In this document: piece by piece, positions 3,623 through 24,752 of the stretch | How positions within the stretch are numbered: position 1 is the stretch's first letter | How the letters are laid out: every line of letters starts with the position of its first letter | DNA from: Rotaria sp. | Lineage: Eukaryota | Direction of reading: 5' to 3' | Length of the DNA stretch: 31,780 nt | Assembly: GCA_905250055.1 (NCBI GenBank) | Contig: CAJNOF010000018.1 | Location: 1,159,575 to 1,191,354, forward strand | The notes under the pieces: generated by a model | Told to the model about the DNA's origin: nothing | Database searches by the model: none | What the model saw: the letters and a program-made list of their open reading frames with translations, nothing else | Made by a program: the position numbers and the translations under genes

Positions 3623-6295
3623 ACATTCATGTCAATTGATCTGGTACTGTCGAAAAAATAATTTGAAATTTTTCAAAATTTCATTTCTAAACTTGAGTTT
3701 CGAATGCAATTCTACAACAATCCAAGAGGCTATACGAGAAATTTTATTCTAATTGGGCTCCTTCGAATAGTGGAATCATTTTACATACGAAACACAGTTC
3801 AAGGTCATAACAATAAACAAGAGGAATTGATTCAGAAAACTATCAGATTCTTGAGTACATGCAAAACCTATATGAATGGTCTTGACTAGATGTTACTTCA
3901 AGAGCCATTTGAATGTACCAAAAATTAGGATTGTCAAAAGCAACACTGGTATTTTTAGAGTTAGTCGTGAAAGAATTTCTTGAAAGATTAATCCTAAATT
4001 TTTATATTTATTTTTCTGTGCTCAACAGGTACAGTAACAAAACTGAAGAGTTAATACTTTAAGAAGTACAACAAGGAGAAAAAAGCACAAATGAAGAAAT
4101 TGCTAAACTGCTATCGAGTTAAATTTATGTATGTTGTGTTTCAGATATGCAAAAATCTATGGCAGTTATCGAAAAAATTTCGAGTCTTGGAAATAGAACT
4201 GAATAGTAAAAAGAATCCTATCATATTTATAAATAAAAATAGCTGAATGCACATCTCTGATTAGAATAGAATAATAACTTTAAATCATCTTAATATTTAA
4301 AACAAGTCAGTTCAAGTTTTATATCATGATCATTGTCCATCATTTATGAAAAATCATTTTTATCTTTCACATGCTTTCTTTCTTTTTTAATGACAAATCC
4401 TCCATTTTTGTATATTTCCTTATTAAAATTTTATCTTTCACATCATAAAATACCGTACACCGTTTCGATATGCAAAATCATGAAACTCTAATATTTCTCT
4501 TTCCTGGAATAAACTAGCATAATATTTAGGCAACATTTCTTTCCATGATTATATGACTATTAAAATGTATGTTTTGAAACTGATTAAATTTGAATGTGTT
4601 TCGAAAAAGATTGAGCATATTAATTGAAAGACGACTCTCGTTCATCTGCTGTATGCATATTTTGTCATAGCCAATGATTAGATCTCAATAATTGTATTCA
4701 TACATGTTGCTGACATTAATTATTCAGATGATTGTGAATTTCATTTCAACTTCTTTAGAAATTCTATTTAACTAATTGTAAAGTTGCTCGCTCTTATCAG
4801 AAGATGTTTCTTCGGTCAAAATTCGAGTATTAATATGGACTCAAATTCGGATCTACATCTCACTAATTTTCATAACAATTGATGTTATATTACATGCTTT
4901 TTTCAATGAGATCTACAGAAGCCGAACACAATTTTGAGATATCAATTTGTAAAACTTTTCTCTATATATTCTATTTCATTATCATCTAATTGATTAACAA
5001 TAGGATGATGAAGAAATGTCTTTCAAAATACTTGAATTTATGACTCGGTCATGACGTTTCATATTGATATGACAGTATATTCAAAAATAAAAAAATCTCC
5101 TGTCAATTGTTGAATACTATGGATCTAATTAAAATTTGAATTTCATTGATCTAATTCTGCTATAACTCAATTTCTCAAATATTTTGAGTTGTGAATCAAT
5201 TCTTATTACAATAGGCAAAGCTGAAGAAAAGATGTTAAATAAAAGCGTCTGTCTTTTGTACATGTTCTAGTTTTAGTGAGAAGAAATATTAAATTTATTT
5301 TAGAACGAAATCATTTTTTTTTGTTTTTTTTGGGTCTTTTGTAAAAATTCAGTAATTTGATAACGAAATAGTATCATAACCTAAAATTTTCAGGCTATAT
5401 TTCTAGACTTTGTCAAATTAAGAAGACACAAATTATTGACTTTTTGTTATGATTACCAAAAATATACGTACAATAGCAGAATAGTGTTTTTTTATAAACC
5501 AATCCAACGTATCAACTCGATTCTTTTGTTACTGGCATTAAGTTATTTAGATATGGTGATAATATATTTTTCAAAAATAATTTTTCGTTTTGGTAATATT
5601 ATCACGATTAATTGTCGTTCATATTCACTCTATTAAGTACTTGGTTGCAGGTGCATTTTTCTGTGACATGTGGGTAAATGAAGATAGGATCTTCCCTTCA
5701 ATCACATTCACTCATCCTCACACTCAATCACATGTAGATCCACACTATTGTGAAAGAAAACCAATGTGATCACATGATTTTGATGATAATATATCACAAA
5801 TCTAAAGAAATAAGATATTTTATTGTTTACAGAAGAAATATGTTTTATTCGTATAAAGATTAATCTAGTATAAGAAAAATAAATCTTAATAAATAAAAGA
5901 AATATAGAACAGATAAGAAGAACTTTAAAGAATGAATAGAAAACAAAAAAAAAAGGAAAATGAAATTTCGATTGTTGTACTATCAAAGCAGGTTCAACTT
6001 TTCCTAGTCTATCTCTTCTTCTTTTCTTTCCAATCGACACTGTTTTTGTTACTTGAGGCGGGTTTGAAATATTTCAAATGAATACTCACATCAACAACGT
6101 ATTTTCATATACAATTCTCAAGTAACAACTTGACTATTTTCGTTTTGATGTTTGACCAATTTTTATTATGGTCCATATTCAAACAACAAATATCAAACGA
6201 TTTTTTGAATGGATTAAAAGCAGTTCAATTTCTGCTTTTACATACATTTAAATTAGCTTGTTTAATCGATTGAAAATCACAAGCTGGTATATAAT

Positions 6296-6756
6296 ATCTT
6301 CTATTATTTTATTTTAATCAATTTAATGTGATATTAATAATTTATTTAAATTTCAAATTTGTGACGTTTTCGCATCTCGATGAAAGAGTTCATCAGACAT
6401 TAAAATTAAGGCAAATGACATGTAAATAAATACAACGAGAATAACAAAAAATTTTCTTTTCTTTAATATGAGTCATACATTTGATAGTGATACGAAAAAG
6501 GACTCAATCTCTATCTACGTAGCTATTATTATTAGTCTTGTTTTCTATATCACTATCAAATGTATGACTAATATCAAAGAAAAGAACAAAAGAAAATTTT
6601 TTGTTATTCTTATTGTATTTATTTACATGTCATTTGTCTTAATTTTAATGTCTGATGAACTCTTTCATCGAGATACGAAAATGTCACAAATTTGAAATTT
6701 AAATAAATTATTAATATCAAATTAAATTGATTAAAATAAAATAAAATAAAAGAAGA
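6296..6756. repeat. Long near-perfect palindrome of about 460 bp, a foldback-type hairpin element.
   Basis: 6300-6455 is the reverse complement of 6585-6750, and the centre 6455-6585 is itself palindromic (AGTCATACATTTGATAGTGATA / TATCACTATCAAATGTATGACT). Track ORFs 6468-6695(+) and 6619-6816(-) are mirror-image artefacts of the palindrome. Confidence 0.75.
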
Positions 6757-8130
6757 GAATAAAATCATGTCAAATACAGTATATAATATCTCTTTGAGGA
6801 ACCATTTGAAATACAAATTATATATTTTTTATTAGTGATTTCGCCGATTGATACGATAAAGTCCATAATGATAAAGATATTGATGATTCTGTAGCAAATA
6901 TTTTTGATTCATTGAGGTATTATCTTATTCCATTGACCAATTATTAAACAATATTTGAAGTTATTGTCAAAAAATTTCATAGAACCTGAGTTTTCCTACA
7001 CGTTCCATCATCTTTGATTTTTTTGTTGGTTGTTTCTAGAGAGTTGTTTATGTTTGGTACATAAAGTTGTATATCTTCATATCAACTTTTATTTATTTTG
7101 CATCATTTATTGTAAAAAAATAATTCAAAAAGTCTAATGTTGATCGATCTTTTTTTTTTGCTTATTGTTCATTTTCCACTTTATAAGTAATGTTAATATT
7201 ATCTAAATGAAGCTGTAGAATTGGACAATTGAAATATTTCAATACCTTTTATAATTTTTTTTTTGAAACATATGTATCATCTATTTGAGTTACTCTTGAA
7301 TAAATTTCGATTTTTATTATTACTATTTAATTTAATGATTTTTAAATATAACAAAAAATCTAATTATTTTAATAGCGGATCATTTAAATAGTTTACTGAC
7401 CACTCAAAATGATAGCCAAAATTATTTGCGTACAAACATTTGTGATTTTCATAACTAGTCTATAAATTTTCATCAATATAATAGCAGAAAATAAGAAGAA
7501 AAAAGTCTTTTAATTTTTCTTTTTTAATGTAATATTTTCAATATTTTTAAATATAAATAAGCTAGTATATATAGTTTTGAATCCTTTTCTCTTGATTGTT
7601 CGGCATAACTTTTGTTGATATTGATCATTCTATATAATAATCGATGTTCAAATTTCGAGACATCATTTAATAAAATTCTTGAATCTGCTTTTAAGTTAAC
7701 TTTTCGTAAGTCTTCCAATAAAATAAATAATTTAATCTTACTGAAGAATTGAGAAAAGATTCTCATGACTCTATTTTTATATGGACATATATATATCTGT
7801 TATTATCTCACTTATCTACTGTTGATAAATAGCTCTTGTAGAAAAAAGTCAAAGGGCGTACTCTCACATGTATGAATACGATGTACAAAACCTATTTTAT
7901 CATAAATGACGTCGACGAAAGAAAACAAAAACTTACATGCGTAAGCATAGGCATGCTTTATATATAATGACATATTGTATAATTGGATTAATATTTTATT
8001 TCTTGATTAATCTACAATAATGACAAAAATACTATTCAAAAAATAAGATATAATGTCGCCTACGTTGTCTTCGTTCTTTTTTTTTTTGTTTTTTAGTTGA
8101 AGTCATGCTCTATCAACCACTTTAATACTG

Positions 8131-8137
8131 TATAAAT
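8131..8137 (+). promoter_or_regulatory. TATA box (TATAAAT) about 70 bp upstream of the ATG of the WAP-like gene. It is conserved in the inverted paralog.
   Basis: CTGTATAAATCTCATCAATTG is conserved as TATATAAATCTCATTAATT on the minus strand of copy 2. Confidence 0.45.
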
Positions 8138-8206
8138 CTCATCAATTGTACAAAACAAATCGTTTTTTTACATAAGACTATTCAAGTTTGATATTATCAA
8201 AGGATC

Positions 8207-8671
8207 ATGAAAAAGTTAATCTTACATTTATTACTAGCTACTTTGACTATTGTTGCTCTATGTGCAGCTCAAGATGATCGAATTAAAATTGACAAACGAC
8301 GTGCTATACCCATAGCAACTCGAACAGTTCCTCCAATTGTCATTGGTTCAAAGACTTTCTGTTTAAGATTCCCATTTTCACCTAGATGCCATCCATGCAA
8401 ATATAGTCAACCAATCAGAAAGGCTATTTGTGGACAAGGACAAAGCAGATGTGAATTATTAGGTGGTACATGTAAATTTAATCAATATGAGAGAGCTTAT
8501 TGTTGTCCATATGAACATCGAGGTTGCTGTCCTTTGGTAATATATTTTCCTATTATTACTGGACGTCCTCCTATATGCCGTTCTCCACAATGTAGAACAG
8601 ATGCGCAATGCAAAAATTATGAAAAATGTTGTGGAATTTGCCGACAATGTGTCAATGCTACACTCGCATAA
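8207..8671 (+). CDS. Secreted cysteine-rich protein (154 aa, single exon) with an N-terminal signal peptide and a C-terminal WAP-like four-disulfide-core motif.
   Basis: Uninterrupted ORF. The N-terminus is hydrophobic (MKKLILHLLLATLTIVALCAA). There are 16 Cys, including CRTDAQCKNYEKCCGICRQC (the C..D..C....KCC..C..C WAP signature) and CC pairs (YCCPY, GCCPL). A paralog lies at 21843-22301(-). Confidence 0.75.
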   Translation: MKKLILHLLLATLTIVALCAAQDDRIKIDKRRAIPIATRTVPPIVIGSKTFCLRFPFSPRCHPCKYSQPIRKAICGQGQSRCELLGGTCKFNQYERAYCCPYEHRGCCPLVIYFPIITGRPPICRSPQCRTDAQCKNYEKCCGICRQCVNATLA

Positions 8672-8733
8672 TTACGAAGAGTAATATTTATTTTGCCGAC
8701 AAATAAGCTTGAAAACTCTTTTTTTGTGTAACA

Positions 8734-8739
8734 AATAAA
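8734..8739 (+). terminator. AATAAA polyadenylation signal about 65 nt after the stop codon of the WAP-like gene.
   Basis: ACAAATAAACTC is conserved in the copy-2 3'UTR (CAAATAAACTTTG on the minus strand). Confidence 0.4.
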
Positions 8740-9142
8740 CTCAATTCAATTATTTTTACTTCGTGTTTCGTTTCACAAAACAGAATTCTTCTTCTTATGT
8801 AACATTTACAGTAATATTAGGATTGGAATCAAGAAAAACAACGAGATTATCATTTTTTTTTATCTATTGAATAGAGCCGTTTTCGTGAGAAATATCTTTG
8901 GAATAAATAATATATTGTAATTTAATGAATGCCTTTTTATGTCACATCCATTAGAAAAAGAATATTATTTTCGGAAGCTATGTTTTAATACATTGTTTAG
9001 TTCGACAAAAATTCGAATAGCTAAGATTACATTACTGTGTATTTGTAATTTGCTTACCCATTGAAAAATAGTTGTTATTCGTGAAACAAGTTTATTACAA
9101 AATGTATATGTAAAGTACAAAGGACATAAGTGTTGCGAATTG

Positions 9143-9700
9143 TATTTTTCTTATTAAAAATTTAGTTTATAAATGAAATAATTTTATGAAGTTAGATAGG
9201 AATAGTGCAAGAATAGACTCTTCCAATATAATTTATAAAGCTTACAATGAAGATACAAAATGTTGATGGAACATTGGATGCTTCATTGGACCGCTTTCTC
9301 TAGCACCTCGTATTATTTTAAGTTTTCTATTTGAATTTTATATCCAATAATGTTCTATATTAACTAAATGGCGCAACAATCAGGACTATAACTAGATCAT
9401 TTGTATACTTTAGAATTATGTTCGTAACTAGAGAACGTGACCTTTCAAGCATGCAGTGATTTTTATATACAAATGTTATTCAAAAATGTATGGAGAAAAA
9501 TACAAATGATATACGAACACATTTCTCTTTCGTTGTAAACTTCTAATTATATTATAAGTATCTATTCTTATAATATTAATATTTATCGTTGTAACATTAT
9601 TTCAATCACAAACTGGATATTTAATATCAAAAATACGATTCACAATATTTTTGTTATCGGTTGATACGTATACATCATTGATATTTCACATAAAATTGTT
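9143..9700. repeat. Downstream flank segment duplicated near 21000-21500. Sub-blocks A and C are in direct orientation and sub-block B is inverted.
   Basis: A: 9143-9222 approximately equals 21020-21100 (direct; TTTATAAATGAAATAATTTTATGAAGTTAGATAGGAATAG vs TTTGTAAATGAAATAATGTTATGAAGATAGATATAAATAG). B: 9236-9375 approximately equals the reverse complement of 21195-21349. C: 9620-9700 approximately equals 21420-21500 (direct; AATATCAAAAATACGATTCACAA vs AATATCAAAAATATAATTTGCAA). Confidence 0.6.
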
Positions 9701-10188
9701 ATATCAATTCAGTTTTTGTTGAGATATGATCAAGTTTTTTCTTTACTTTTATTTCAGATCTTAGTTATTGTCATTGGGCTGATTCAAATACAAATCTTGC
9801 CATGACCATTCTATGTGTTGCATCGAATAAAACGGAGAAGTAGGTAGACATTGAGTAATAAAAAAAACTCACGAGAGAAGATTCACCAGTGATTCGCACT
9901 GTTTGGACTCATCTTTTGCTGACATGTGGAGCTCATCATATAGATCAAATACCTGAAAGAGTTCGTGCCATTGCTGTATAGTTTCAAAGTTATGAGCGAA
10001 GCAGCTGTTATGATGGATGGTGTCACCCAGAGATGGAACCAGTCTACCGGTACTAAACAGAATGCTGATGATACGCCAGTTTATTAGAGAAAATTCGACC
10101 TACCGTCAAAATATCGATCTACAGACAACAGGCTGAGGCTTGAAATGAAACCTTGTTTCATGGTAAACTCTCTTGCGGGCTATCTTCC

Positions 10189-11876
10189 AGAGACCGTCAC
10201 AGGGCAGGACTGCCCTGATGCCCTGCCCTGTTCTTCAGGGCAGGGCAGGGCGAAACTTTTTGCTCTGATTCAAAGAAAGTTTTTAGCAGAGTGTGAATAA
10301 AATTCAGTTTTTTATTAGAAAACTGATTAAAATGGCAAAATTGTCATTGAATTTTAACCTAATTATTTGATGTTCAATCGATTAAACTTTGTGACTAGAT
10401 CAACACTTGTATATTCCATTCAAATTTATTTTTCTAGTACCTTTTTCTCAAGAAGTTTTTATGCCAGAAGGCTTTCTTGCTCAGCTCAAGAAGTGTATGT
10501 GGATCAAAACAAAGTTTAACCGAGAGATCCAATCAAATGTTGCCTGTCGATCTTAAGAGAAGACTTAATTTATCTCTGTTGAAAAATAGCCGCCTTTCGT
10601 ATAATATCCACGATAAATAAACAATCATTTTATTTTATATTAGAAGTTCGTTCACAAGAGCACAACAAAGGCGAAATAGAAGCTAATCTGATTCCTAATT
10701 TTGTTTTCAAAAATTCTGAAATTTCTTTAGATTTATTAATGTCAAACTTGGTTTTTTGAGTAACAGACAATTGTTTTACAATTAAAATCACTTTACTCCG
10801 ATTAAAGAATTTTTTTCAGCAAAAATCTTAGTATTCTGCAATATTTAGTTTCTAAAACGTCTATCAACGATAAAAGGCTAAAGTTCAAATTTAAATTGAT
10901 TGTTTTTGGATTAAAAATCAATTGTAATAGCACTACTTTAATCGGATTTTGTCAGCTAATAGACAGATTTCATTCGATTTAAAATCTTTTTTCATTTATT
11001 ATAATCGATGACTCAAAATACAGCAATTATAAATTATTATTAGAAATCGATTTCAATTGATGAAAGTTATTTCACCCAAAGTATTATTAAAAAATCTTAC
11101 AATAAAATGAAATCTGTCTTTTTGACTGAAAACTCTGGCTAAAGGCAGTCTAAAATAGTGCTATTTTAACTAACGTTTACGTCAGACACAATCGATTTTA
11201 ATCTAATCTTGAACCGTTTTTCTACATGGACAAATAAGTCTCAGAATATGTTTTTAAATGTTTGGTTCTATATGTGAATGCGAGGAAAAAACTTGGCGAT
11301 GAATGGAAGGCCAGTATTGGTAGGGTTACATGAACTTTCGTAATAGAAAACCATCACGTTTTATTTCATGGAAATGAGACATGAGTTTTATTTATTGCTA
11401 TGTTAGTTTATACAATTGAACAAGCAATTATTATCGTATGTTGAAACATGATATGTCAAAGATCGACTTAATATTACACGTACTGTTTGTCTTAGTAAGG
11501 AGTTCAGAAAAAATGAATTTTTTAAGTTTCACTTTCAAAAATACACCATTCAGCCATATCATTATTGAAAACGGTTGAAAATCGAATAATCTGATTCTAA
11601 TAGTAGTATTTTCATTCAATTTTTAAACATAAGAAGTCCATTAAAATGATATGATTTCTGAAGCTCGTACAACAGTACTTCTTTCTGGTACATGATGGTG
11701 TTTAATTACATAATAACTTTGATTGTGGCACTTTCGAAATAACATAAAGTATGAGTATAAAATTCGAAAGCAATCAAATAATTTTTATGAAGATTTTAGA
11801 TCTTATACTATAGGCTTACTTAGCTTAGACACCCTGCCCTGCCCTCAGGGCAAAAAAACTACCCTATGACGGTCTC
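10189..11876. mobile_element. Non-autonomous DNA-transposon-like element of about 1.69 kb with GC-rich TIRs ((A)GAGACCGTCAyAGGG...CAGGGCAGGGCAGGG) and a probable 11-bp target-site duplication.
   Basis: The left end 10189-10255 (AGAGACCGTCACAGGGCAGG...CAGGGCAGGGCAGGGCG) is the reverse complement of the right end 11831-11876 (CACCCTGCCCTGCCCTCAGGG...CCCTATGACGGTCTC). The flanking direct repeats are GGCTATCTTCC (10178-10188) and GGCTACCTTCG (11877-11887). The AT-rich interior has internal inverted repeats (10907-10985 vs 11110-11175) and no ORF. Confidence 0.7.
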
Positions 11877-12089
11877 GGCTACCTTCGTACCTTCACGCAT
11901 AATGGCATAATGCTTCACAGTTGATAACAATAGTCTCATTGATGGGCATTCTGAGAATTATTTGTTAAATAAATTCGTGTGTGATGAGTGGAACTAGTCT
12001 TGGTTTCAGTTGTTTTTTCATGTGAATACCATCAAAGAGTAGGAAAGTGAAATTTAGATCGGTATAAGGCGGTTTCGACTGATGAGACC

Positions 12090-12165
12090 AGTTTAGACCG
12101 GCCGATCTAAAAATCCAGACCGGTACCGAACCGGATAGGACCGGCCGGTTACCGGTACCGGTTCT
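12090..12165. repeat. GC-rich ACCGG/CCGGT palindromic hairpin, related in motif to the element at 215-540.
   Basis: GGTACCGAACCGGATAGGACCGGCCGGTTACCGGTACCGGTTC is self-complementary. Track ORF 11965-12405(-) runs through it and reads TRGRTGTGNRPVLSGSVP, which is low-complexity and probably not coding. Confidence 0.5.
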
Positions 12166-14801
12166 ACCTCTGGTGTCACCTTCTATGCAGTACTTTTTTG
12201 TTCCTTTTGTAGCTTGACTAGATGATAGCCTTTTGCATAGAGGCTTATAATACATACTTGTTTCAGCTTGCTCGAATGAAAAACGTTTTAAGAAATATGA
12301 TTCAGTTACATTATGGAAAATAGAAACCATTATTGAATAGATGGTAGCACTATCTATCATAGCAGATATTTCGCTCATAACTTGGAAACTGTGCAACAAT
12401 GGCACGAACCCTGTAAGGCATTTGACCTATATAATGGGTCCCACATACCAACCAAAGATGAACCCAAACGATGTGAATCACTTGGAAATGTTCCTCGTTA
12501 GACTATGAAAGAATACAATGAGAAGCAATAAATCACTAAACCATATACATATGAAAAGAAGAGATAAAGAATAGAGCTATTAAGAATCTTATAAGTTCTA
12601 TTTAATGAATGAGTGAGTGACAGATATATCCAGAATGAATAATTTTTCTGTTCTCTCTTACACCATTCACTGAGTTTCTCTTTCAACTATAGGAACACAA
12701 ATGTATTTTGATCGAATGGTTATTTAACTTGTTGTAATAAAAGAACTCGGACATTTCAATAACTAATTACATCTTTCTGCGTAGTTTATTGACAATCAAA
12801 CAGCTCGAATCTTGTCGTCATTCCTTTCTTATTTTCATGAAATGAATCATATTTTATATTTTTCTTAACAAACTAAACTCATGACATTGCCTCTATCATA
12901 ATATACTCTGTCATCAATTTAGTGATGCATTAAATAATTGACAATAACAAATTCAGTCCAACATGAAAGCTCACAAATGCTTATATTATCAAGAAATTTC
13001 TATTTACTTTCAAAATATTTTCCAAGTCGCTGTATGTTATAAATGAACGCGAAAACTATTAACTATTTGCTGTTGCGCATAAATGCAAGATAATATTACA
13101 TGTATAAAAATAAATTTTTTTTTAAATATCTTTTTAAACAAAACATATGAGACTATAGATGACTGTTTTTCTTGTAAATAATGGATGACTTATAATCCAT
13201 GACAGGACTTTGAATTTTATTTTTTCATCGTCTAATACATTTCATTAAAAAACAATATATATCCACAAGATGTAGCGTACAAAGTTCTCGACCGTACGAA
13301 AACTGATTACAAGGAATTTTAATTTTTTTTGAAAACAATTACAATAAGTTTTGCTGTATATTTTGAAATTATTTTTACTGCATCAACCCGATAAAACAAA
13401 TATGAAAATAATAGATTATTTTTAATGGTTTTTACCATTTTTATCAGAATGTATAAAACATATTTTCAGTATGTTTCAAGAGATTTTATTGAATTTAAAT
13501 TTTATTTACTTATTCAATGATTATGAATAACAAAAAATATTTTCCTTGTAATTGTGTTAATTGTGAAAAGTTAGTATTTAAATGAAGTTTTTGTCAAGAT
13601 TTTTCATTTTACTTGTTAATTGAATTCCTTTTTTTTTTGTTGTTTCGTATATTTAAGCTTATATTTCTTATATTTGAATAAAAACTTATCTAATTCATTC
13701 ATTGATTTTATGATGAAATTTCTCTAATACAAGTTTAGTTTTTTCTTTAATTTAGGTTATATTTTTTCACAAAAGTATACTTGAAATCATGCGTTTGTCT
13801 TTGATATAAGATAAAGAAGAAAAAATGTTATTTTGACATCATATTTCAATATTTTTTATTTTGTTGAAACTTTTATTTTGCTATTTTGATTTAAATTTAA
13901 ATCAAATAATTCTATTCAATTTTTTGTTTCCATATTCATACGTATTGGTGTGAACGGAGCCGACGGATTCTGATGAACTGCAAATCCTTGATGTAAGGCT
14001 TGTGAAGGCGAAACCTCAGTGAGCATGTTCGATAACATGTGCCTAATATCCTCGCTTTTACCAGACCTCTAAAATTCAAGTGTAAAATATTCTCAAATCG
14101 ATCTAAATCGATCATGATAGCTTTACATCGAACATATTTTTACTTAATATTAAACTAAGTATTTTATGACATGATTGTGCAACAATTTCAGAATAGTATT
14201 CTTGTATATGGGATCCCGAAGTAAGTACGTATATTTGAATTTGAGATAACTACTTAAATAGAACCTCAACATAAACTTCTCATCCTTTTGAATACTAAAA
14301 TTTGCATTCAAATATAGAATATGTTAATAAGTGTGATATTGTGTTGTTCTGTTTATTGTTCGAATCTCAAAACTGTACAGCAAATTCAATTGTCTCATCA
14401 AATGTTTATTCTAATTTAGTATAAGTCACTCTTCTTTTCGGTCTTCAGATTCTACTATGAATGCAAGTGAAGATATAGTGAACAGACAGAGATGGCAATG
14501 CGACTGAAGTGGACATCTTCACCAAACATCTTCAATCTCAATTCTAAAGCAACACAAATGCCTTGTCTCCTTTAGTTCTTGTGCTTATGTTAGATGGTAT
14601 GTGTCAATGTCACTTATTTGCTTTAATAGCATGCACAAAAAAGCTTTTGATTGTAAAAAAACAGTAGAATAAAGAGAAGACCATTGACGATGATATTTAT
14701 GTTACATATCAAACTTAACGAAATTTTTCATTATCAAGAAAATGTAAATTAATTATCCAACTAATAAATACAATGAAGTGAAAAACTTTTTTCTTAGATA
14801 T

Positions 14802-15147
14802 TTAATGTTTTTCAACGAAATTAATAAGAGAATTAGCAATCTTTCCATGACACAGTATGGAATTCTTTTGTATTAATCTTGCACATAAACACTTCAAGCT
14901 AAGTTTTGTTTTAGTTCTAATAAATTGCTTAATATTTGAATTTGTTGCAATATCAATAGGTGTCTCTCGTAAAGCATTGACATAATCAGCATGAGAACCA
15001 GCATCAAATAGATATTGAATTATAGTATTATCAACTATAGTTGATTGGGAAACAAATATATGAAGAGGTGTGTTTTGAACAGCATCCCTGGCATTCACAT
15101 CAGCACCACATTGTATAAGTAAATGAACTGTATGTAAAGATGGATAT
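14802..15147 (-). CDS. fem-1: fem-1 homolog, exon 3 (final exon). It encodes the C-terminal ankyrin repeats and tail.
   Basis: Acceptor TTATAG|A at 15148. The translation ...YPSLHTVHLLIQCGADVNARDAVQNTPLHIFV...LKCLCARLIQ...INFVEKH* aligns without gaps to the FEM1B C-terminus ([21 protein letters not shown]...LKCLAARAV...EEFVGFH). The stop codon is at 14799-14801. Confidence 0.85.
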
Positions 15148-15201
15148 CTATAACAATCGATAATCTTTCACAAATAAGTATTTTAAGAAAAAAAAACATA
15201 C

Positions 15202-15371
15202 TTGCAAATGAAGTCGATGAAATAGTCATTTGCAGATGTATGATTACTTAAACTTAAATGTAATAGAGAAGATCGATAGGTTTGGGTAACATATTGACGT
15301 TGAATAATGCTGTGAATATGTCGATAAAATAGTTTACGGTCATCATATGAAATCATTGATTTTGATAGCAT
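15202..15371 (-). CDS. fem-1: fem-1 homolog, exon 2.
   Basis: Acceptor TTGTTTAG at 15372-15379 (minus sense). Donor AA|GTATGT at 15201. Intron 2 is 54 nt (15148-15201). The translation ...LLHLSLSNHTSANDYFIDFICK matches FEM1 [23 protein letters not shown]. Confidence 0.8.
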
Positions 15372-15434
15372 CTAAACAAGAAAATCTCGATTGAAAAAAA
15401 AGAACAGCAAAATTTCAGCTAGATATCTCAATAC

Positions 15435-16796
15435 CTGACTAACGATTGTTATTAAGAAAAGTAAAGTATGTAGATTATAATCAAAATCTTTCGTATGATG
15501 TTCTAATTCTTCAATTACTACTGTTATTATTGTCTGCCATGATACAATCGGTATCGATAATGAATTACGTAACATGTCACTAAACATTGAAGCCCACTGA
15601 CGCAAATCTTCCATGTCAATAGATAATGAGTACTGTCGACGTAAATTAAGTTCATACAACCAAAACTCAATTCCTCGATAATGCTCTGCATTATCAGCTA
15701 GAGCGGCACCATGATATTGAAGAGAACGACGATATTTTGTATTAGTTGAACCAAGCAAACGTTCACGTACAAGTAATGCTTCAATGTACATATGATTATC
15801 ATTTAATTGAAGTTTTTTTAATTCATCGATTGTTTGACATTCTTGTCGATTATCAAATACTTCAACAGTTGATAACCGTAGAACTTTAGGAAGATTATGT
15901 TGAAATCGAAGTTCAAGTGCTCGATAGAAGTATTCAAACGATTGTTCAAGATTATAGCTTCCATGTTCACCACAGGCAAAAGCACTTCCAAGTAATTCAT
16001 GCGCTTCGATTTTTTCAAGCAATGAACATTGTGGAGAAATAGCATCGACAAGATCAATTCGTCTCTTTTCAGCTGCTAATAATAGTGGAGACATTTGATC
16101 ATGATTTGATCGAAAATTTCGAGCACCATGATTTAGTAAAAATTGAACTAATTCAAATGAACCACGATCTACAGCAAAGTAAAGTGGTGAACAACCATTA
16201 TCCATTGATTCATTTACATCACAACCTAATTCATCAACAAGATAAGTTACCATTTTTAAATCTTCATTGTAAACAGTTAATATAAGATTTGTTTCATTAT
16301 GTATTTTGGCAATATGTATATTAGCACCGTTCTTATTCAAATAACGAGCAATATTCATATTACCATTGGAACAAGCACAACGAAATGCTGTTGAATTTGT
16401 TTTAGTTGTATGATTAATTTTAGCTCCATGTTCGATAAGTAATTTCACAATATTAACATTGTCAATGGCAACTGCTGCCCATAAAACAGTTACATTTTCA
16501 TACATTAATAAACTTTCATCTCTTTCTTCGAGTTGTATATCATTTAGCACTTCGAGATCAACTCCAGAATAATTAAGCAATATTTGTACTATGTCTTCGA
16601 ACTCATTTAAACAAGCAATCATAAGTAAAGTACATTTTTGTTTGTTCGATTCATCATATGTTCGATTTAAATAGATCTCAGGATTGTTCATTGTCGACAA
16701 ATGATTTTGGAATGTTTTAACATCTCCTTGACGAACAGCAGATAATAGTAAGTTACTTACGTCCTCCTTGAAGTCATCGTTGTATTTCATCGTCAT
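15435..16796 (-). CDS. fem-1: fem-1 homolog, exon 1 (454 codons; ankyrin repeats). The full gene encodes about 626 aa.
   Basis: ATG at 16796. The translation matches FEM1B throughout, for example LWAAVAIDNVNIVKLLIEHGAKINHTTKTNSTAFRCACSNGNMNIARYL vs [49 protein letters not shown], and IEAHELLGSAFA vs IEALELLGASFA. Donor CAG|GTATTG at 15434. Intron 1 is 63 nt. Confidence 0.9.
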
Positions 16797-18738
16797 TGCA
16801 AATGCATAGAAATGAAAAAAAATAATGTTTTACCTTGCATTTCTATTCACACGTGCAAGTTGTATTTCTTGGATATTTCTTCCGCTCTTCTGTTTTCTTG
16901 TGTTAGTTAAGATGAATCATAGTATGCATAGAAGGTAAAAAATATTTTGACTAAACAGAACAATAAAAATACACTTATGTTCAGCTGTTCTTTTTCTAAA
17001 ATATTTGATTGTCAAATAGTGATAAGTCTTCATGAGTTTTTATCTAATGTTTGATTAAAATAACCCAGTGTGTAAAATGATTGATAATTCTTCTTATTAT
17101 CTTAGAAAATTGTATGATATTTGAATTCATTCCATACAATCAATACTGTAAGGAGAGAAGCAGTTAGGTTTACAAATCCTTTACAATTATTAATAATAAT
17201 TTACTATTTTTAATAATTCATCATTCTATATTCAAAATCACAAGCTAATTATGAGTTTTAATTTTAGTTGTAAAATAAATGAAGAGTTAAGAACTTTATA
17301 TCAACTTGAAAATGATTGACAAAAAAATTCAAGTTGGCGTTTCATTATAGAAATAGTCAAATATAAGTTTTAACACGACTATAATTTTAGTAAGAAACAG
17401 AAACCATCGTAGAAATTTCGTGAATAGATTTAGAGTGAGAGAGATGACCGAATGAAACACGGGACATCATCAGAGTTCTATTGAACCTCTACTTGAATTA
17501 TAAATATTAATTCACTCAAACTCTATTTTTGATTATGGATATGAATTGCTAATGGTTCGGTTTTATCATTTTTATTTATATTCGAACTCAAATTAGACTA
17601 CTACTCAAAACATCGTACCATGCAGCTAATTTACTTCTTGATAAAAATTTATTATCATTGTTTGCGTTACCTTATTTAGTGTTTTCATTAAATATATGTT
17701 TGTGCAGTGAAGATTTACTTGTTCATACTACAGTAGTTAATTTTTGTAAATTTGAAAGAAATACATGCCACTTGTTCTGGATTTTGTTGGTTCATTAGTA
17801 TTCTTGCATGTGCGCCTAGAAAATGCAAGTAAAGAATGATCCCATATTTCCACTACACAGTGGAATTAAGTGTTCAGTTGATCGCATGTCTTAGAACAGT
17901 AATACCCGTCGTGACAATATCAAGAATATCTCATTAAAATATTTTTGTAGTAAAATTCACTAACGTTTAATTATAATTCATCAAAATATTAATAATCAGG
18001 CATTGAAACGATTTATCAACATCTGACAATATTAAAATCTTTAAATGCTAAAAGCTATGAAAAAATAAATGTGTGCAGATTTCAGATATAATAGATACTA
18101 TTTAATGGCTATTATCATAAGACTTTATTAGTATAATTAAAATCGCAACTATACTATATTTTTTTCGTTCCTTATATACTATTTCCTAGCATAGAGAGAC
18201 CTTGAAAAATACAGTAAACGTAATAACAGAAAAATACGGGGTGTGCAAGGACAAATTCAGAGAAGAACAAAGGTTAAGTTACAATTATAGATAGCGCTAC
18301 GTACGAAGGAAGGACAAACTAATAATGCCATTCCAATGTACATATAGGAGAAAAATGAGATGAAAGCACATAGAAGTATTGATAGATAATAGACAAAAAA
18401 GGCATCGTGGTCATTTCAATCGAGGATAAGGAACAACTTCTTGTACGTTAGATTAGATTGTTATAAAGTGATCTAATGTCAAAAAAAGACAATTAGTAAA
18501 CACAAAAGTTATCTAGCTTTTTTCATACTTGAAAAACAATTGTCTTCTCTCATACAAGGTGACATTCGTGTTCTCAAGATAAGTTTTTTTTTCGTTCTTT
18601 TATCATACTGTTAAGATAAAAACGACAGTAGGAAGACAAACACAATAAACTATTAGATCTTTAGAAAAAGTACAAAAAAGCCAGTATCAGTCTATTTCAT
18701 TCATCAGAATTTAAAAAGATATTCACATAGTTATCAAC

Positions 18739-19725
18739 ATGGTAGACTTTCTACTAGTCAATATCGTTTGGCTTCTTCATTTTGTCATATGTTTCTACAT
18801 TATCCGTCCTATTCGTCACATTCTAATTCGAGCCATTTTGACTTGCGTACCATGTATATTACTGACTGATATTTGCACACGTAATCTTCCTCCACATCAT
18901 ATTTTTTCTGTCTTTACCATTGCAATATATTGGATGGTATCGATTCGTCTCTTTCATTTAGTCGTTCTTACACCTGACACGTTTCCAACATTTTCTTCCT
19001 TTACTGCAAAATGTCTATGGATTCTCTTACCAGTTATACCTTGTCAATCGAAAGAGAAGCAATGGCCTATCATCTTTTATTTGATTTTTGGTGTAGTAAA
19101 ATTTATACTTAATCGTTGGTTACATAGATGGTTACTGATATGTGAATCAAATGATAGTTATATGAGAGTATTTATTTATTTCTTATCAATATTAACATTT
19201 TCATATGTAGTCGATATTGAGACGGTTCTTGTGCGAATAATCACTCGAGATAAATATACACTTCAATCACTTAACAATTTTCCATTCTTCTCTCAATCAT
19301 TACGTGAATTTTGGGGTCGACGATACAATCGGATCATCAGTACAATTTTCAATGAATCAATTTTTCGGCCTCTCAGTTTATTTATACCTTCTCGATCAAT
19401 CGTATCTTTATTAATATTCATTATCAGTGGTCTTTTTCATGTACATATTGTCTTTATTGTTTTCAATGAGCCTTCATCGGCTTTGCCTACATTTGCCTGT
19501 TTCTTTCTGAATGGTATTGCTTGTTGCATAGAAGCACATCTTGCAATTAAGTTACCACCATTACTTGGATGGTTGGTAACACATAGTGTCCTTTTTGTAA
19601 CAGCACCAATGTGTCTTGGAACGTTTGCACGAGACAAATCTGTATTTTTTGGTCTAGATGGTCTTTCAACGTATGGTGATCAATGGATTTCAAAATTGCC
19701 TATGCCCAAGAGTTGTCCGAAATAA
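18739..19725 (+). CDS. Intronless multi-pass membrane protein (328 aa) with MBOAT_2 / wax-synthase-like acyltransferase motifs.
   Basis: Uninterrupted ORF with many hydrophobic segments. It contains SLREFWGRRYN (compare the wax-synthase / MBOAT_2 motif S..FWGRRWN) followed about 45 aa later by IISGLFHVH (compare the conserved vSGllHE histidine motif). Confidence 0.55.
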   Translation: MVDFLLVNIVWLLHFVICFYIIRPIRHILIRAILTCVPCILLTDICTRNLPPHHIFSVFTIAIYWMVSIRLFHLVVLTPDTFPTFSSFTAKCLWILLPVIPCQSKEKQWPIIFYLIFGVVKFILNRWLHRWLLICESNDSYMRVFIYFLSILTFSYVVDIETVLVRIITRDKYTLQSLNNFPFFSQSLREFWGRRYNRIISTIFNESIFRPLSLFIPSRSIVSLLIFIISGLFHVHIVFIVFNEPSSALPTFACFFLNGIACCIEAHLAIKLPPLLGWLVTHSVLFVTAPMCLGTFARDKSVFFGLDGLSTYGDQWISKLPMPKSCPK

Positions 19726-20996
19726 ACAACAACAAGAAAAATGTCAAAACTGTACTGATATGTTTTATGATGATCAGTATTGAATAAATAAAAGAAAAGC
19801 ATTTTTTTACAATTTTGTAGTGAACTAAAACTCGTAAACGAAGATTGTTAAAAGTCGACGTCAAAATGGACGTAATTGATTTTAATTGTATTCGCACGCT
19901 ATAGCTCGAATAATCATGCTTCACAGAGATGATAGCAAAGAATTTTTTTTGCCTATATGTAGTAACAAAATGAATAGGTGGTGTCAATAGGCAACAAATG
20001 GCCCTGAAGTATCAGAGTCTATTGAGCTCGATCAGTTCCTATTTCAATCCGACAACTCTGACTGATTAATCGAATAAAACATTCGAACCAACTGATCTGC
20101 AATAGATACACTCGGATTAATTCAGAAGCAATTGTGGTAAAAGACATTCATATAAAAATAATGTAACTTTGATGATCTACATTCATTACGGTGTCTTGAG
20201 ATCAGACAAACAAACTATTTTTGCACTACAATCGAGGCAATCAATCGTGCGCATGATTTTTTTTTCGGCAGTTTTTTTTACTGATTCGCTCGACTTTTAT
20301 TATGAGCCAATGTATCAAGAGGTAGCTCATAATTGATAAGAAGAACGAAAATAAAGCTTAATGTAGTACTCGGCAATATTGAAAATCTAATTACAAGTCA
20401 ACGTAGAATATTATTTATTTTCTTGATTCATTCTCAATCAATTTAATAAGGACTCTGGAGAGAGAACTAAACAATACAAAGACTATTAGGTACAACAATG
20501 TCATTCATGCAAGAATATTTTAGTCGGTTCTCTTATTCATCTTCTTCTCAAACATTTCTTGCCTGGTCATGGTATTCATTTCGGCTTGTATATAGTTCAG
20601 AAGAATGACGTTCAGATGATAGATAATTTACAATACAAAACAGTACAAAGACTCTATTCAGTATCAGCACAGTTTTTCCTTTGCATCTTCCATTAACACA
20701 TAATAAAAGTTGAAAAAAAAATAATAAATCACAAAAATAAAACTGTATTTCATATGCGTGTCTAATAATATTTCTATTAGAACATAACTGAGTTTTTTTT
20801 ATTACTCAATGTCCACTAAATTTTCCGGTTTTTTACATGCAATATATACAATATCCTGGCATGCTTGGTACTTGAACCAGCCAAATAAAAAAAGCTAAGA
20901 TATTAGATAAAAATACAGAAAAATTTTGATCATTTTTCAACAAAAACACCATTGATATAAAAGTATCATATATGAAATGTCATGATACATACGTAT

Positions 20997-21500
20997 CTAC
21001 CAATGACAAAAATACTATAAGTTGTATTTTTGATATAAAATATAGGATTTGTAAATGAAATAATGTTATGAAGATAGATATAAATAGCACATAAAAGTTG
21101 ACAACGAAAGGACAATATGTTTATATATTGTTTGTATTTTTCTCAATACATATCACATTCTCCAGTTAAGAATATTTTTTTGAAGTATGCAATTAATCAA
21201 ATTATAATCGTGATGTTTACACTATTGAGCTAATATGAAACATTATCAAATGGAAAATTAAAATAAAGAACTTGAAATCACATGTTAAACTAGAGAATAC
21301 GATCCGATGAAGTATACAATGTTCTATCAACACTTTGTATCTTCATCTTAAGCTTTTTACTACACTAGAAGAGTCTATTCTGGTACTATTCATATAAGTG
21401 ATTTCATTTATAAACTATAGTTTTAATATCAAAAATATAATTTGCAACACTCTTTTGTCCCTGGTAGTATAGTCAGACATTTTGTAATAAACTTGTTTTA
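20997..21500. repeat. Second copy of the downstream flank segment, A' and C' direct and B' inverted, adjacent to the inverted gene arm.
   Basis: See the 9143-9700 entry. The reverse complement of 21311-21349 (CAATGTTCTATCAACACTTTGTATCTTCATCTTAAGCTT) matches 9236-9275 (AAGCTTACAATGAAGATACAAAATGTTGATGGAACATTG). Confidence 0.6.
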
Positions 21501-21842
21501 CTACTAGGAACTATATCTCAGTGGAGAAGTACATTACAAATACACAGCAATATAATCTTAGTGATTTGAAATTTTGTCAAATTGAACAACTTTTTACAAC
21601 ATAACTTCCGAATATAATATACTTTATCTAACGGATGCAATATAAAGAAGTGTTCATTCTTTTTTTTTCTTTATACCACTCTTCATAATATTATAAAGGT
21701 CACAGAAAGAGGATACTTCTGTTTTGTGAAATGAAACACATAGTAAAAATAATTGAAGCAAGGCTATTAGTTATGCAAAAAACAAAAAAAAAGAATTTCA
21801 AAGTTTATTTGTAGGCAAAGTAAATATTAGTCTTTGTAATTA

Positions 21843-22301
21843 TTAATAGACGGCTGGAACACATTTTCGGCAAATTCCACAACATTTTTCATAAGGTTTG
21901 CATGATGCATCTGTTTGACATCGATGACAGAATGGACTAGGACGTGGAAAGATAATAGTTCGGTATTCTACTGTTGGACAACAACCTCGATGTTCCCTTG
22001 GACAACAATAAGCTATGCCGTATTGATTAAATTTACATGTACCACCTAATGCTTCACATCTTCTTTGTCCTTGTCCACAAGTAACACCTATAATTGGTGA
22101 GCCATATGTGCATGGATTACATTTGGTTGATGATGGAAATTGTAAACAGTACTTAATTGGATCAAAGATAATTGGAGGAACCGTTCGAATTGGTATTAGT
22201 ACAGTACGTGATTTGTCAATGTCAACAGAATCACCTGGAATTGCATGTAAGCCAACAATAGCCAAAGTTGTTAATAATAAGCGTAAGATTAACTTGTTCA
22301 T
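21843..22301 (-). CDS. Secreted cysteine-rich protein paralog (152 aa, single exon) with signal peptide and WAP-like four-disulfide-core motif.
   Basis: MNKLILRLLLTTLAIVGLHA signal peptide. The Cys framework is conserved with the 8207-8671 product (CGQGQRRCEALGGTCKFNQYGIAYCCPREHRGCCP...CQTDASCKPYEKCCGICRKC). I estimate about 65% amino-acid identity. Confidence 0.75.
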   Translation of the reverse strand: MNKLILRLLLTTLAIVGLHAIPGDSVDIDKSRTVLIPIRTVPPIIFDPIKYCLQFPSSTKCNPCTYGSPIIGVTCGQGQRRCEALGGTCKFNQYGIAYCCPREHRGCCPTVEYRTIIFPRPSPFCHRCQTDASCKPYEKCCGICRKCVPAVY

Positions 22302-22368
22302 GATCCTTTGATAATATCAAACTCGAATAATCTTATATAAAACATAATTTGTTTTGTAAATTAATGAG

Positions 22369-22377
22369 ATTTATATA
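22369..22377 (-). promoter_or_regulatory. Conserved TATA box (TATATAAAT on the minus strand) about 70 bp upstream of the copy-2 ATG.
   Basis: Minus-strand read GATATTATATAAATCTCATTAATTTAC. The position matches that of the copy-1 TATA. Confidence 0.4.
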
Positions 22378-24122
22378 ATATCATAGTGATTGACAGGGCA
22401 TGACTTCAATGCAAGAAAAAAAAAATTAAGACAATGTAGGCGATGTCATATCTTTTTTTTTGAATCATATTGATCTATTTTTGCCAGTATTGTAGATTAG
22501 CGTTGCAAAAAAATATTCATCTAGTAATAAAATATATCGTTGTATAAAACATGACTATACTTACGCATATAGGTTTTTGTTGTTTGTCTTTCGTTGACGT
22601 TATTTACGATTAAATGGATTTTGCGCATTGTAATTACACATGAATGAGTATGCTCGTTAGCTTTTTAGATGCATTATTTATCGATAGTAGATAAATGAGT
22701 TAATAATAGGTATATACGTTAATATAAAAATACTATCATGAGAATCTTTTCTCAAATATTCAGTAGGATTAAATTGTTCTTTTTATCTAAAGACTTATGA
22801 GAGGCTTAGTTGAAAATAGATTTAAGAAGTATATGAAATTATGCCTTGAAATTTGGTACATCGATTATAATATAAAATGATCATTATTAACAAAACAAAT
22901 GACGAAAAACGAAGAAAAGACAAAAAAAAAACAAGGACTCACAATTGCATATACTACTTTATTTATGTTTAGACATATTTTGAAATATTACATTAAAAAA
23001 TTATAAGACTTTTTTCTTCTTATTTTCTGCTATTATATTGCTAAAAATAAATACATCTGTTGTCAAAATCATAAATCCTTGTACGTAAACAACTTTGACT
23101 ATTATTTAAGTGGTCAGTAAAATATATAAATCATTAACCATTAATATAGTTAGCTTTGTTAATGTATTTGCAATCAGTAAATTAAACTAAATTAAAATTA
23201 AAATATATTAAGAAGTAACTCAAATAAATGATACATATATTGAAGAAAAAATAATAGAAGATATTGAAATATATCAATGATCTTATTCCTTTAGATTTGT
23301 AGCGTAGTATCATCAAAATGATGATAATATTGGTTTCCTTCCACAATAGTATGGGTTTGTATGTAACTGAAGAAAATACTCTACTCTCACGCGACAGAAA
23401 AAATTCATTTGCAGCAATTTTATCAGAATCACGAAAGCAATTCACTTACATATTGATATTATCTATTTTAGTAATTAGTAGATTGGCTATATGAAGAATA
23501 TATTTTGACAAATTAGAACTATCAAGTCAAACATCTCAAACTTCTCTTAGGAAAAGTCAGATTTATCTAATAAATCGAATATATCACTACGTAACTATAT
23601 CATGTGCTTGTCAGGAGAACTTTCATAATTGATGACACATATTCAATAGACATTGTCACATTGTGAAAAACCGCAAAGAATAATTTATGCCATACAATAT
23701 TCTAGACTTTCTTGAAGAGATATAATTATCTGTTTTTAATTGTGTTCTATTCAATGGATAATTTTGTCATAGTAAGAAGTCATTTTTAGCCAATCGTTCA
23801 ATACTGTTTATGTCGTTTGAGAATGACCTTGAACCATTTTATCAAGCATTGTTTGGTTTCAACGAGAACTACGACTGTTTTCATAATAATAAGGATATAA
23901 AATAATATCAATATGTATAATCATTTATTCATTCATGAATATCTTGAAAGAAATGTGTTTTGTTTTCAATGATTTCTATTTTGTTTATTAAATAAAACGA
24001 CGCAAACCAATCCACAATACGAAAGCAGCGATAGAAGGAAAGAAGATTATTTTGTTGCTTATAGCTTTTTTCAACACGAACAATATCGAAAGAAAAACAA
24101 GTAAAAATAAAGAAACAAATAT

Positions 24123-24490
24123 AGATCCAGAAAGATTGATGTATGTAAAATGTTCGTCAGGTTCTAACATGACTAATTCTGGTCCTAATATAATTCTTGA
24201 ACTTTTTGCTTTATAATCATATACTTGTACAGCTTGATTTTGTGGTACTCGATATGTAACCACTTTGGTTTTGTCTCGTTTAGTCGTTTGCAACGATGAT
24301 GATGATGATGATGTTATTGTTGTTTTGTTCTGTCTTTCACCTAAACGATCTCGTTGCAGAAATTCTTCTATGCTTACGGGTAGCTCTTTTTCCCAGAGTT
24401 CTTCATCTTGCGTTAACATATATGTATTACCAATGATCGCACGAACACGACCACTTCTCAAGTCACGAACATAGATACCTTCATTTTCAT
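24123..24490 (-). CDS. MVP: MVP exon 6. The 3' boundary is uncertain, and MVP homology stops after ...INLSGS.
   Basis: Acceptor TTTTCTAG|[40 protein letters not shown]...[45 protein letters not shown] matches [41 protein letters not shown]...[45 protein letters not shown]. It includes an in-frame (TCA)6 poly-Ser stretch at 24295-24315. Below about 24123 the frame stays open but reads as a hydrophobic, non-MVP tail down to the stop at 23988. Confidence 0.7.
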
Positions 24491-24541
24491 CTAGAAAAAT
24501 TTTTACTAGATAAACAAAATATGAGAGATCAATCAAACTAC

Positions 24542-24628
24542 CCAAAGGTATCGCTTTTCGTTTTTGTAATACTTCAACTTGTACTGGTGGTATATACTCT
24601 CGTGGTCCTCTGGCTACCCATTTGTCAC
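24542..24628 (-). CDS. MVP: MVP exon 5 (87 nt).
   Basis: Acceptor TTTTTTTAAG|[31 protein letters not shown] matches MVP [29 protein letters not shown]. Donor G|GTAGTT. Confidence 0.8.
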
Positions 24629-24752
24629 CTTAAAAAAATTCAAATTATTTTAGAGTCATATATAATAGACATATCTAATTATTGTCGAGTTAGAACCTAT
24701 CGATTGGTTATTTTTCTATGATAGAAACACAAGAAAAATTATTTTCTCTTAC

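Follow-up and report, generated by a model that had tools for sequence, protein, structure and literature searches.

The DNA considered here is a 31,780-nucleotide stretch of the bdelloid rotifer Rotaria sp. Silwood1 (assembly GCA_905250055.1, contig CAJNOF010000018.1, positions 1,159,575 to 1,191,354), referred to below as the window. Its subject is a large inverted repeat whose arms each carry one gene of a convergent pair, gene A (8207-8671, plus strand) and gene B (21843-22301, minus strand). We read A and B as an old paralogous pair within a small, bdelloid-restricted family of secreted cysteine-rich WAP-type proteins, and the inverted repeat as an old structure and not an active palindrome, and assign this reading a probability of about 0.72. 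Gene A is an intact, intronless coding sequence (CDS) for 154 amino acids, identical to a Rotaria sp. Silwood1 protein at NCBI that is present on seven contigs in several assemblies. Gene B is also intronless (152 amino acids) and keeps all 17 mature cysteines. The two open reading frames (ORFs) are intact and their products 61% identical (E=1e-54), as expected of the convergent paralogues described in an earlier, sequence-only reading of the window.

That reading placed the arms at 7235-8830 and 21640-23285. The outer blastn match (7228-8863 versus 23278-21640; 75.0% over 1674 columns, E=0) reproduces these limits almost exactly, and the inverted homology far exceeds the background expected in this AT-rich DNA (G+C roughly 23-36% per 1-kb window). 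A repeat scan and blastn also detected an inward continuation at 8924-9871 versus 21658-20789 (71.3% over 952 columns). The core of the left arm, unit A, occupies 7228-9871 on the plus strand and consists of about 980 bp of 5' flank, gene A and about 1.2 kb of 3' flank; the right arm, unit B, as delimited by blastn (20789-23370, minus strand), likewise contains 5' flank, gene and 3' flank. The arms are thus about 2.6 and 2.5 kb long, some 1 kb longer than the 1.6 kb first proposed, and the spacer (9872-20788) measures 10.9 kb instead of about 12.8 kb. A global MAFFT alignment gave 77.5% identity across 2450 aligned positions. The homology spans the 5' flank with its TATA box, the CDS and the 3' flank, as had been claimed.

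The unit of about 2.5 kb (promoter, intronless CDS and 3' flank) occurs at least five times in Silwood-1 DNA: in addition to A and B, copies were found at C (locus L011), D (protein P0135, locus L019) and E (protein P0131, loci L023/L024). A sixth Silwood-1 protein, F (P0137), is on record. The left-arm unit was recovered at 72-77% identity in Silwood-2 and at three other Silwood-1 loci.

Architecture and relatives of the encoded proteins

Protein A is built from a signal-peptide-like N-terminus, a Pro/Ile-rich linker, a middle cysteine domain (about 9 cysteines) and a divergent WAP domain formed by the C-terminal ~45 residues (approximately 107-150). By inspection, we read the N-terminus as a signal peptide (a hydrophobic helix followed by the small-residue motif ..ALCAA/QDD), and a helix is modelled there at residues 2-20. 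Seventeen mature cysteines are invariant in the family alignment. Mature A carries a net charge of +14 (isoelectric point 9.25) and mature B of +8, with values of 0 to +5 in members outside the Silwood species.

At the C-terminus, eight cysteines are arranged in the WAP order C1...C2...C3-x5-C4-x5-C5C6...C7...C8, and the fuller pattern C1(P)-x13..20-C2-x2..4-C3-x5-C4-x5-CC-x2-C-x2-C fits A, B, C, D and 19/22 sequences checked. The PROSITE-type WAP signature is C-x-{C}-[DN]-x(2)-C-x(5)-C-C. It is found in A as CRTDAQCKNYEKCC at residue 129 and in B as CQTDASCKPYEKCC at residue 128, and is also present in C, D and 19/22 sequences checked. Pfam searches with A and B alone returned no WAP match at E<=1; over 10 members, WAP (PF00095) was the only recurrent family (six members, best E=7e-4), and the more distant relative P0150 passes the Pfam WAP threshold with 22.1 bits. 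A family profile searched against the PDB gave only three matches, nawaprin and two SLPI half-molecules, none of them significant (E 0.13-0.96). Against 1.84 billion protein representatives the same profile found just 29 proteins, among them genuine multi-WAP proteins reached through profile positions 110-160: P0159 (9 WAP repeats, E=1.1e-9), P0160 (E=1.4e-8) and P0166. The R. magnacalcarata and R. socialis members bear the UniRef name 'WAP domain-containing protein'. For an AlphaFold2 model (mean predicted local distance difference test score 73), the four highest-ranking PDB structures in Foldseek were 1/2SLPI and omwaprin at a non-significant E of about 2, as is usual for 45-residue domains; target-normalised template modelling scores were 0.65-0.69 for three of the four and 0.48 for the first-ranked (4doq_B). 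From these cysteine patterns and profile matches we conclude that the C-terminal third probably constitutes a divergent, waprin/crustin-style WAP domain. The sequence-only reading had called the proteins WAP-like on the basis of a four-disulfide core; such a core is present at the C-terminus, confined to the C-terminal third and below the Pfam threshold in A and B.

Among known single-WAP proteins, the closest likeness is to the waprins, which occur in snake venom. Of all PDB sequences, that of nawaprin (1UDK) matches the family profile best, though marginally (E 0.13), and omwaprin (3NGG), which is antibacterial (PMC9680087), is among the top fold matches. Waprins and the rotifer proteins share the eight-cysteine order, a long Pro/hydrophobic C1-C2 loop, a short C2-C3 segment and a cationic character; the C2-C3 segment has 2-4 residues in the rotifer family, versus 3 in nawaprin and 8 in SLPI. 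Unlike waprins, the rotifer proteins are about three times longer, contain the additional linker and the middle domain of about 9 cysteines, and have C6-C7 and C7-C8 spacings of 2 and 2. The domain order (signal peptide, low-complexity region, cysteine-rich region and single C-terminal WAP domain) is that of crustins, which are multigene, highly diverse and lack the protease 'primary contact region' around C2 (PMC9680087). Crustins are by definition crustacean antimicrobial peptides, so that the rotifer family is an analogue and not a member. Its middle domain has 8-9 cysteines, against 4 in type I/II crustins, and our analysis revealed no direct link in sequence between the two families.

SLPI and elafin (trappin) have the WAP fold in secreted, cationic proteins of mucosal defence and provided the second and third PDB sequence matches. 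Inhibitory WAP proteins have a primary contact region around C2 with an adjacent Met (PMC9680087). The corresponding loop after C2 in SLPI and elafin (8 residues including P1, usually with a Met next to the scissile bond) is without counterpart in the rotifer family, where the hidden Markov model alignment to SLPI has a 4-residue gap after C2 and no Met. Because the inhibitory loop is lacking, canonical elastase- or trypsin-type inhibition is not expected. By analogy, the proteins would most plausibly work like waprins or crustins, being secreted and cationic with a single C-terminal WAP domain and no inhibitory loop, although they are members of neither group and form a lineage-restricted WAP-type family.

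The family is small: 21 clusters in 5.8e9 proteins and 29 representatives in 1.84e9, all named ones from Rotaria, and it was seen only in bdelloid rotifers or in unnamed metagenome sequences. Distant members (P0139, P0141, P0154 and P0161; profile E 1e-11 to 1e-20) share the middle cysteine domain and/or the WAP-like C-terminus. In distant members of antistasin-WAP type, the shared region is preceded by a true Antistasin domain (PF02822); A and B have the Pro/Ile-rich linker there. Our literature search yielded no publication dealing with this locus or with a WAP family in bdelloids.

Promoters, reading frames and selection

The proximal promoter of gene A (8097-8142, plus strand) contains the motif TTGAAGTCATGC at 8097-8108 and the TATA box TATAAATCTCAT at 8131-8142; that of gene B (22364-22409, minus strand) has its TATA box at 22364-22375 and the motif at 22398-22409. 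Both elements are kept in A, B, C, D, E and the Silwood-2 copy. The TATA box is invariant in 7 family loci, and in R. socialis the TATA core is kept and the TTGAAGTCATGC motif differs by one base. Identity between A and B reaches 84% from -175 to -1, versus 74% in the CDS. The flanks of the two genes have accumulated 24 indels in 1988 aligned bp, 21 of them not multiples of three, whereas the CDS (462 bp), in which about 5.6 events would be expected at the flank rate, contains a single 3-bp indel and no stop codon. Every other family pair examined was likewise free of frame-breaking CDS indels.

Whole-gene ratios of nonsynonymous to synonymous substitution (dN/dS), calculated by the Nei-Gojobori method (NG86) and for A-B also by YN00, ranged from 0.74 to 1.41 among A, B, C, D, E and the Silwood-2 copy, versus 0.25-0.34 for the neighbouring fem-1 homologue at a similar dS of 0.3-0.46. 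The A-B values were 0.79 (NG86) and 1.0 (YN00). When sites were divided into scaffold and loops, with the scaffold defined from outgroup members, loop values were 0.76-1.49 without consistent excess over 1, and positive selection is therefore not claimed as proven. The intact frame, cysteines and promoter beside indel-rich flanks indicate that selection maintains these features and that other residues evolve near the neutral rate. This pattern fits either diversifying selection on the loops or very weak constraint outside the scaffold. Together with the signal-peptide-like N-terminus, it agrees with the small, diversifying secreted family first proposed. We envisage that both genes are transcribed from the conserved TATA promoter and that their products would act as extracellular defence-type effectors (antimicrobial, waprin- or crustin-like, or protease-binding), while the inter-cysteine loops would be under selection that is either diversifying or strongly relaxed.

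A bolder reading of the same data takes the proteins to be bdelloid-specific innate-immune effectors, crustin- or waprin-like and antimicrobial or antifungal, with a new middle domain and with diversification under positive selection from pathogens. Ectopic conversion and small transposon-associated rearrangements would then spread new variants among loci in place of allelic recombination, which these asexual animals lack, and A, with its charge of +14, would be recently specialised. We hold it tentatively, as possible and clearly less probable than the plainer account of an old paralogous pair.

It is unlikely that one copy, most probably B, is a decaying pseudogene whose high dN/dS reflects loss of function. 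An exact-protein look-up of B found none on record, the family-conserved NQYDRAY has become NQYGIAY in B, a C-terminal NAT sequon has been lost, its dN/dS is about 0.8-1.0, and a family member elsewhere in the R. sordida genome (P0140) is clearly degenerate. The missing record has a simple cause in the public gene model, which fuses B to the adjacent major vault protein (MVP) gene: in L013 and L014, two other Silwood-1 assemblies, chimeric MVP-B models at 12910-17088 (window 21843-26090, minus strand) with products of 641-657 amino acids and Vault domains end at the B stop codon, and B itself is present there at 100% (tblastn). The B ORF is full length with no frame-breaking indels, against 21 in the flanks; the 17 mature cysteines and the WAP signature are all kept, and the TATA box and upstream motif are intact. 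Similarly high dN/dS values characterise every other family pair, clearly annotated copies included.

History of the units and of the inverted repeat

Read on its minus strand, the window has the order MVP(+) - B(+) - MBOAT(-) - fem-1(+) - A(-) - nuclear receptor(-), where MBOAT denotes a membrane O-acyltransferase gene in the spacer. The Silwood-2 order, MVP(+) - P0002(+) - fem-1(+), matches MVP - B - fem-1 and identifies P0002 as the positional orthologue of B. Between Silwood-1 and Silwood-2, orthologous intergenic DNA is 72-77% identical and exons are 85% (fem-1) and 82-84% (MVP) identical. The Silwood-2 unit is 76.5% / 70.4% identical to B and 76.8% identical to A. Since the A-B values (75.0% / 71.3%) are close to this orthologue divergence, the split between A and B is about as old as the species split; the arm divergence, K of about 0.25-0.3, is likewise similar to that of orthologous intergenic DNA in the two species. 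Neither Silwood-2 nor R. sordida showed a second, A-like copy in the 10 kb beyond fem-1, and R. sordida has MBOAT and fem-1 with no unit at the A or B position. Just past the 3' end of fem-1, R. sordida sequence (L018 11989-12177) matches window 3832-4011 (74.6% identity in 189 columns), which suggests either the absence of window 4011-14752 (about 10.7 kb, including unit A) from R. sordida or its insertion in the Silwood-1 lineage; the match itself could be a dispersed repeat.

The left arm also includes DNA that separates its core from a distal piece (5707-5827, plus strand), 93 bp of which (5724-5816) match the right arm at 23370-23280 with 78% identity; the piece also matches the Silwood-2 locus (L017 483-601) at 77%. 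The left arm therefore holds about 1.4 kb of extra DNA (5828-7227), parts of which are common to C and D and absent from B and Silwood-2: 5947-6300 and 6778-7228 match the C locus (L011 8257-9032) and 5831-6118 matches the D locus (L019 8806-9077). Within this segment lies a near-perfect foldback of about 450 bp (6299-6749; arms of 165 nt at 95%, inner arms at 89%). Because 6301-6777 is missing at the corresponding place in C, it is probably a foldback or miniature inverted-repeat transposable element insertion. The 3' flank of every unit has an internal inverted repeat of about 150 bp (9116-9267 / 9500-9652, with a right-arm counterpart at about 21325-21466 and 20997-21087), which appears to be an old foldback-like structure predating the duplications. 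In one Silwood-1 individual (GCA_905331535), part of the unit A 3' flank is tandemly duplicated over 583 bp (L001 11611-12193; window 9233-9815).

A paralogous Silwood-1 segment, X (contig CAJNOP010000103), has the order C(+) - MBOAT fragment(-) - ~42 kb - fem-1'(+) - D(+) - nuclear receptor'(-). Flanks at the A and D positions are collinear between the window and X (12498-16888, and 1694-5540 in patches), and the unit itself (5831-9877) is inverted in the window relative to X. A Harbinger-like non-autonomous transposon (9872-12497), with terminal inverted repeats of about 150 bp, directly abuts the 3' end of unit A. Window-X homology on the fem-1 side ends exactly at the transposon end (12497/12498), and D keeps about 60 bp of the unit/transposon junction seen at A. 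In the simplest reading, one of the two segments underwent inversion of a block made up of the unit and the adjacent transposon. The inverted orientation of A would then have arisen, or have been lost in segment X, through that block inversion, and inverted tandem duplication and recombination between the arms would not be its origin.

Exchange between loci is also apparent. Over a 2.1-kb tract, which looks like the product of gene conversion, C and D are 91% identical (CDS 96%) within older homology of about 70-79%. In its 5' flank C most resembles B (86%), and behind C lies a fragment of the MBOAT gene that belongs beside B; yet C occupies a locus syntenic with the only R. socialis locus, an alkylsulfatase lying upstream. 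These mosaic signals across C, D and B imply exchange between loci, and they did not yield one consistent tree. The family would thus appear to evolve by birth and death, with gene conversion between loci and local rearrangement.

Dispersed copies with flanks might be taken to mean that the 2.5-kb unit is cargo of a mobile element (e.g. by Helitron- or Harbinger-mediated capture) and that the inverted pair represents two independent insertions, an account that we consider improbable. It would explain the sharp 3' boundary common to A, B, C, D and Silwood-2, the Harbinger-like element abutting A and its remnant abutting D, and the missing units at the orthologous A and B positions of R. sordida. 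Against it, the unit boundaries showed neither terminal inverted repeats nor target-site duplications nor ends of Helitron type, and ORFs in 9870-14800 showed no obvious transposase on inspection, no database search of them having been made. The shared flank shortens with divergence (only 7753-9099 is shared by E and only 8040-8694 by R. socialis), as for ordinary duplicated DNA; copy number is low, and the C and B loci are syntenic with R. socialis and Silwood-2, respectively.

The sequence-only reading viewed the arms as substrates for non-allelic homologous recombination (NAHR), with inversion of the spacer and palindrome-driven expansion of the family as outcomes. We judge it very improbable that such an active recombinogenic palindrome, inverting the fem-1/MBOAT spacer and driving family growth, exists here. 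The arms are true inverted homologues of 2.5 kb, and they resemble the inverted repeats that undergo NAHR, such as the human X/Y palindromes and Factor VIII int22h, in that gene-bearing arms bracket unique DNA. However, arms of NAHR palindromes are typically >99% identical through arm-to-arm conversion, whereas these are 77.5% identical: no 100-column window exceeds 89% (the best being the promoter and cysteine core), the longest identical run is 36 bp, and the alignment revealed neither a conversion tract nor recent exchange between the arms. Homologous recombination is strongly suppressed above 20% divergence. The orientation of fem-1 relative to MVP and of MBOAT relative to fem-1 is invariant in Silwood-1, segment X, Silwood-2 and R. 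sordida, wherever the genes are present, and the spacer has a constant orientation in the window, L001-L004 and L013/L014. Some inversion did occur nearby, that of unit A relative to D, but it flips the unit and transposon, not the spacer. Other family copies are direct (C and D) or dispersed (E and F). Of near-identical arms, conversion and inversion polymorphism, the marks of a recombinogenic palindrome, none was seen in the assemblies and species examined, and the low identity, missing conversion tract and constant spacer orientation lead us to regard the repeat as structurally inert now.

Spurious palindromes are known from bdelloid short-read and 10x assemblies (Adineta vaga literature), but an assembly artefact, in which a single locus was duplicated or mis-joined and which the sequence-only reading had named as what would overturn it, has a negligible chance of being correct and is excluded as to duplication: 22% of the arm positions differ and 24 indels separate the arms, the proteins are only 61% identical, the same layout with both copies 100% identical at the protein level is found in N-free stretches of L013 and L014, and B has a positional orthologue in Silwood-2.

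Several observations weigh against the view of A and B as an old pair of functional WAP-type paralogues. WAP membership falls short of the Pfam gathering threshold of 20.8 bits (A, 7.1 bits, E=9.2; B, no match), and every member has a spacing of 2 for both C6-C7 and C7-C8, versus the canonical 3-5 and 3-4, which makes this a divergent WAP subtype. A dN/dS near 1 is equally expected under relaxed constraint. For B, which is unannotated and has lost several family-conserved residues, transcription is predicted from the intact ORF and promoter alone. The shared history is also conflicting, as A, C and D have an upstream segment in common that B and Silwood-2 lack, although in its 5' flank C is nearest to B. 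Finally, the single-individual assemblies were scaffolded on a 10x reference (PMC7943196), so that only N-free stretches count as independent evidence.

Neighbouring genes, transposons and significance

The spacer contains the two genes attributed to it earlier, fem-1 and an acyltransferase, both borne out by Pfam matches. The fem-1 homologue (fem-1 homolog B type, ankyrin repeats; 14805-16796, minus strand, two exons) is 100% identical to P0010, and relatives carry the name 'Protein fem-1 homolog B'. Its membership rests on Pfam Ank families (Ank_2 E=6e-29) and on a set of 127 homologues (E<=1e-60), among which the names Fem-1 family protein b and fem-1 homolog B are frequent. The MBOAT_2-family membrane O-acyltransferase gene (18739-19725, plus strand), convergent with gene B, passes the PF13813 threshold (39.2 bits against a cut-off of 25, E=8.6e-10) and is annotated in L013/L014 as a 263-amino-acid product. 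Upstream of gene B, the MVP gene (Vault-repeat; 23988-26090, minus strand) served as the outer synteny anchor; its gene models contain Vault Pfam domains and are 81-84% identical in amino acid sequence to the Silwood-2 exons. The MVP models here have 526-657 amino acids with Vault-repeat domains only, and the gene may be a truncated paralogue. On the A side, a zf-C4 nuclear-receptor gene flanks the locus (window 1694-2594; L003 1595-4299), with a paralogue at the matching relative position in segment X (L019 13922-15734; 82% nucleotide identity).

Farther out, ORFs at 27962-28607 (minus strand) have EGF-like cysteine patterns (CxCxxGWxGxxC) followed by a transmembrane-like stretch; they probably represent exons of a membrane protein of the Notch-ligand or EGF-repeat type. 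From 31468 to the window end at 31780 the DNA forms a degenerate tandem array (GTTGTTGAT-like, period 9/15 nt), which occurs also at 24279-24324; the terminal array is probably a low-complexity coding repeat, rich in Asn, Thr and Ile on the minus strand. Scanned over its full length with Rfam (gathering thresholds) and for tRNAs, the window yielded no hit, and known RNA genes therefore do not explain the conserved flanks.

The Harbinger-like transposon beside unit A has terminal repeats at 9877-10027 / 12343-12493 (77% identical) and termini beginning CGAGAG. Nested within it is a 1.69-kb element (10188-11876) with short terminal inverted repeats (GAGACCGTCA...) and a target duplication of about 10 bp (GGCTAYCTTC), the length of which suggests a Mutator-like element. 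It is absent from L002, L003 and L004, with its start present in L005, and this absence from some Silwood-1 loci marks an insertion polymorphism. A 633-bp non-autonomous element of Harbinger/PIF type at 1057-1689 (149-bp terminal inverted repeats at 92%, TAA target duplication) has termini (CGAGGGAAGATT...) resembling those of 9872-12497; its absence from three other Silwood-1 loci (L001-L003) likewise marks an insertion polymorphism.

The analysis also corrects the public annotation, in which B is hidden in the chimeric MVP model and C is mis-spliced. The C gene is intact and intronless and encodes 152 amino acids (L011 10001-10459); P0006 (144 amino acids; L010/L011/L012 10001-13424) is a mis-spliced model of it, whose false 3' exon lies past the MBOAT pseudogene fragment (L011 11774-12476).

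The inverted repeat emerges as an ordinary old paralogue pair, which lends no support to palindrome biology or to the debated bdelloid 'palindromes'. The locus provides a worked example of gene-family turnover in the genome of a bdelloid, an asexual animal, through duplication, loss, conversion between loci and transposon-adjacent inversion. It also defines a small secreted WAP-type family, so far seen only in bdelloids, in which unusually fast protein evolution takes place on a fixed 17-cysteine scaffold. Horizontally acquired genes have already been described in bdelloid pathogen defence (PMC11258130); should the proteins prove to be immune effectors, bdelloid defence would have in them a component of metazoan origin beside those genes.

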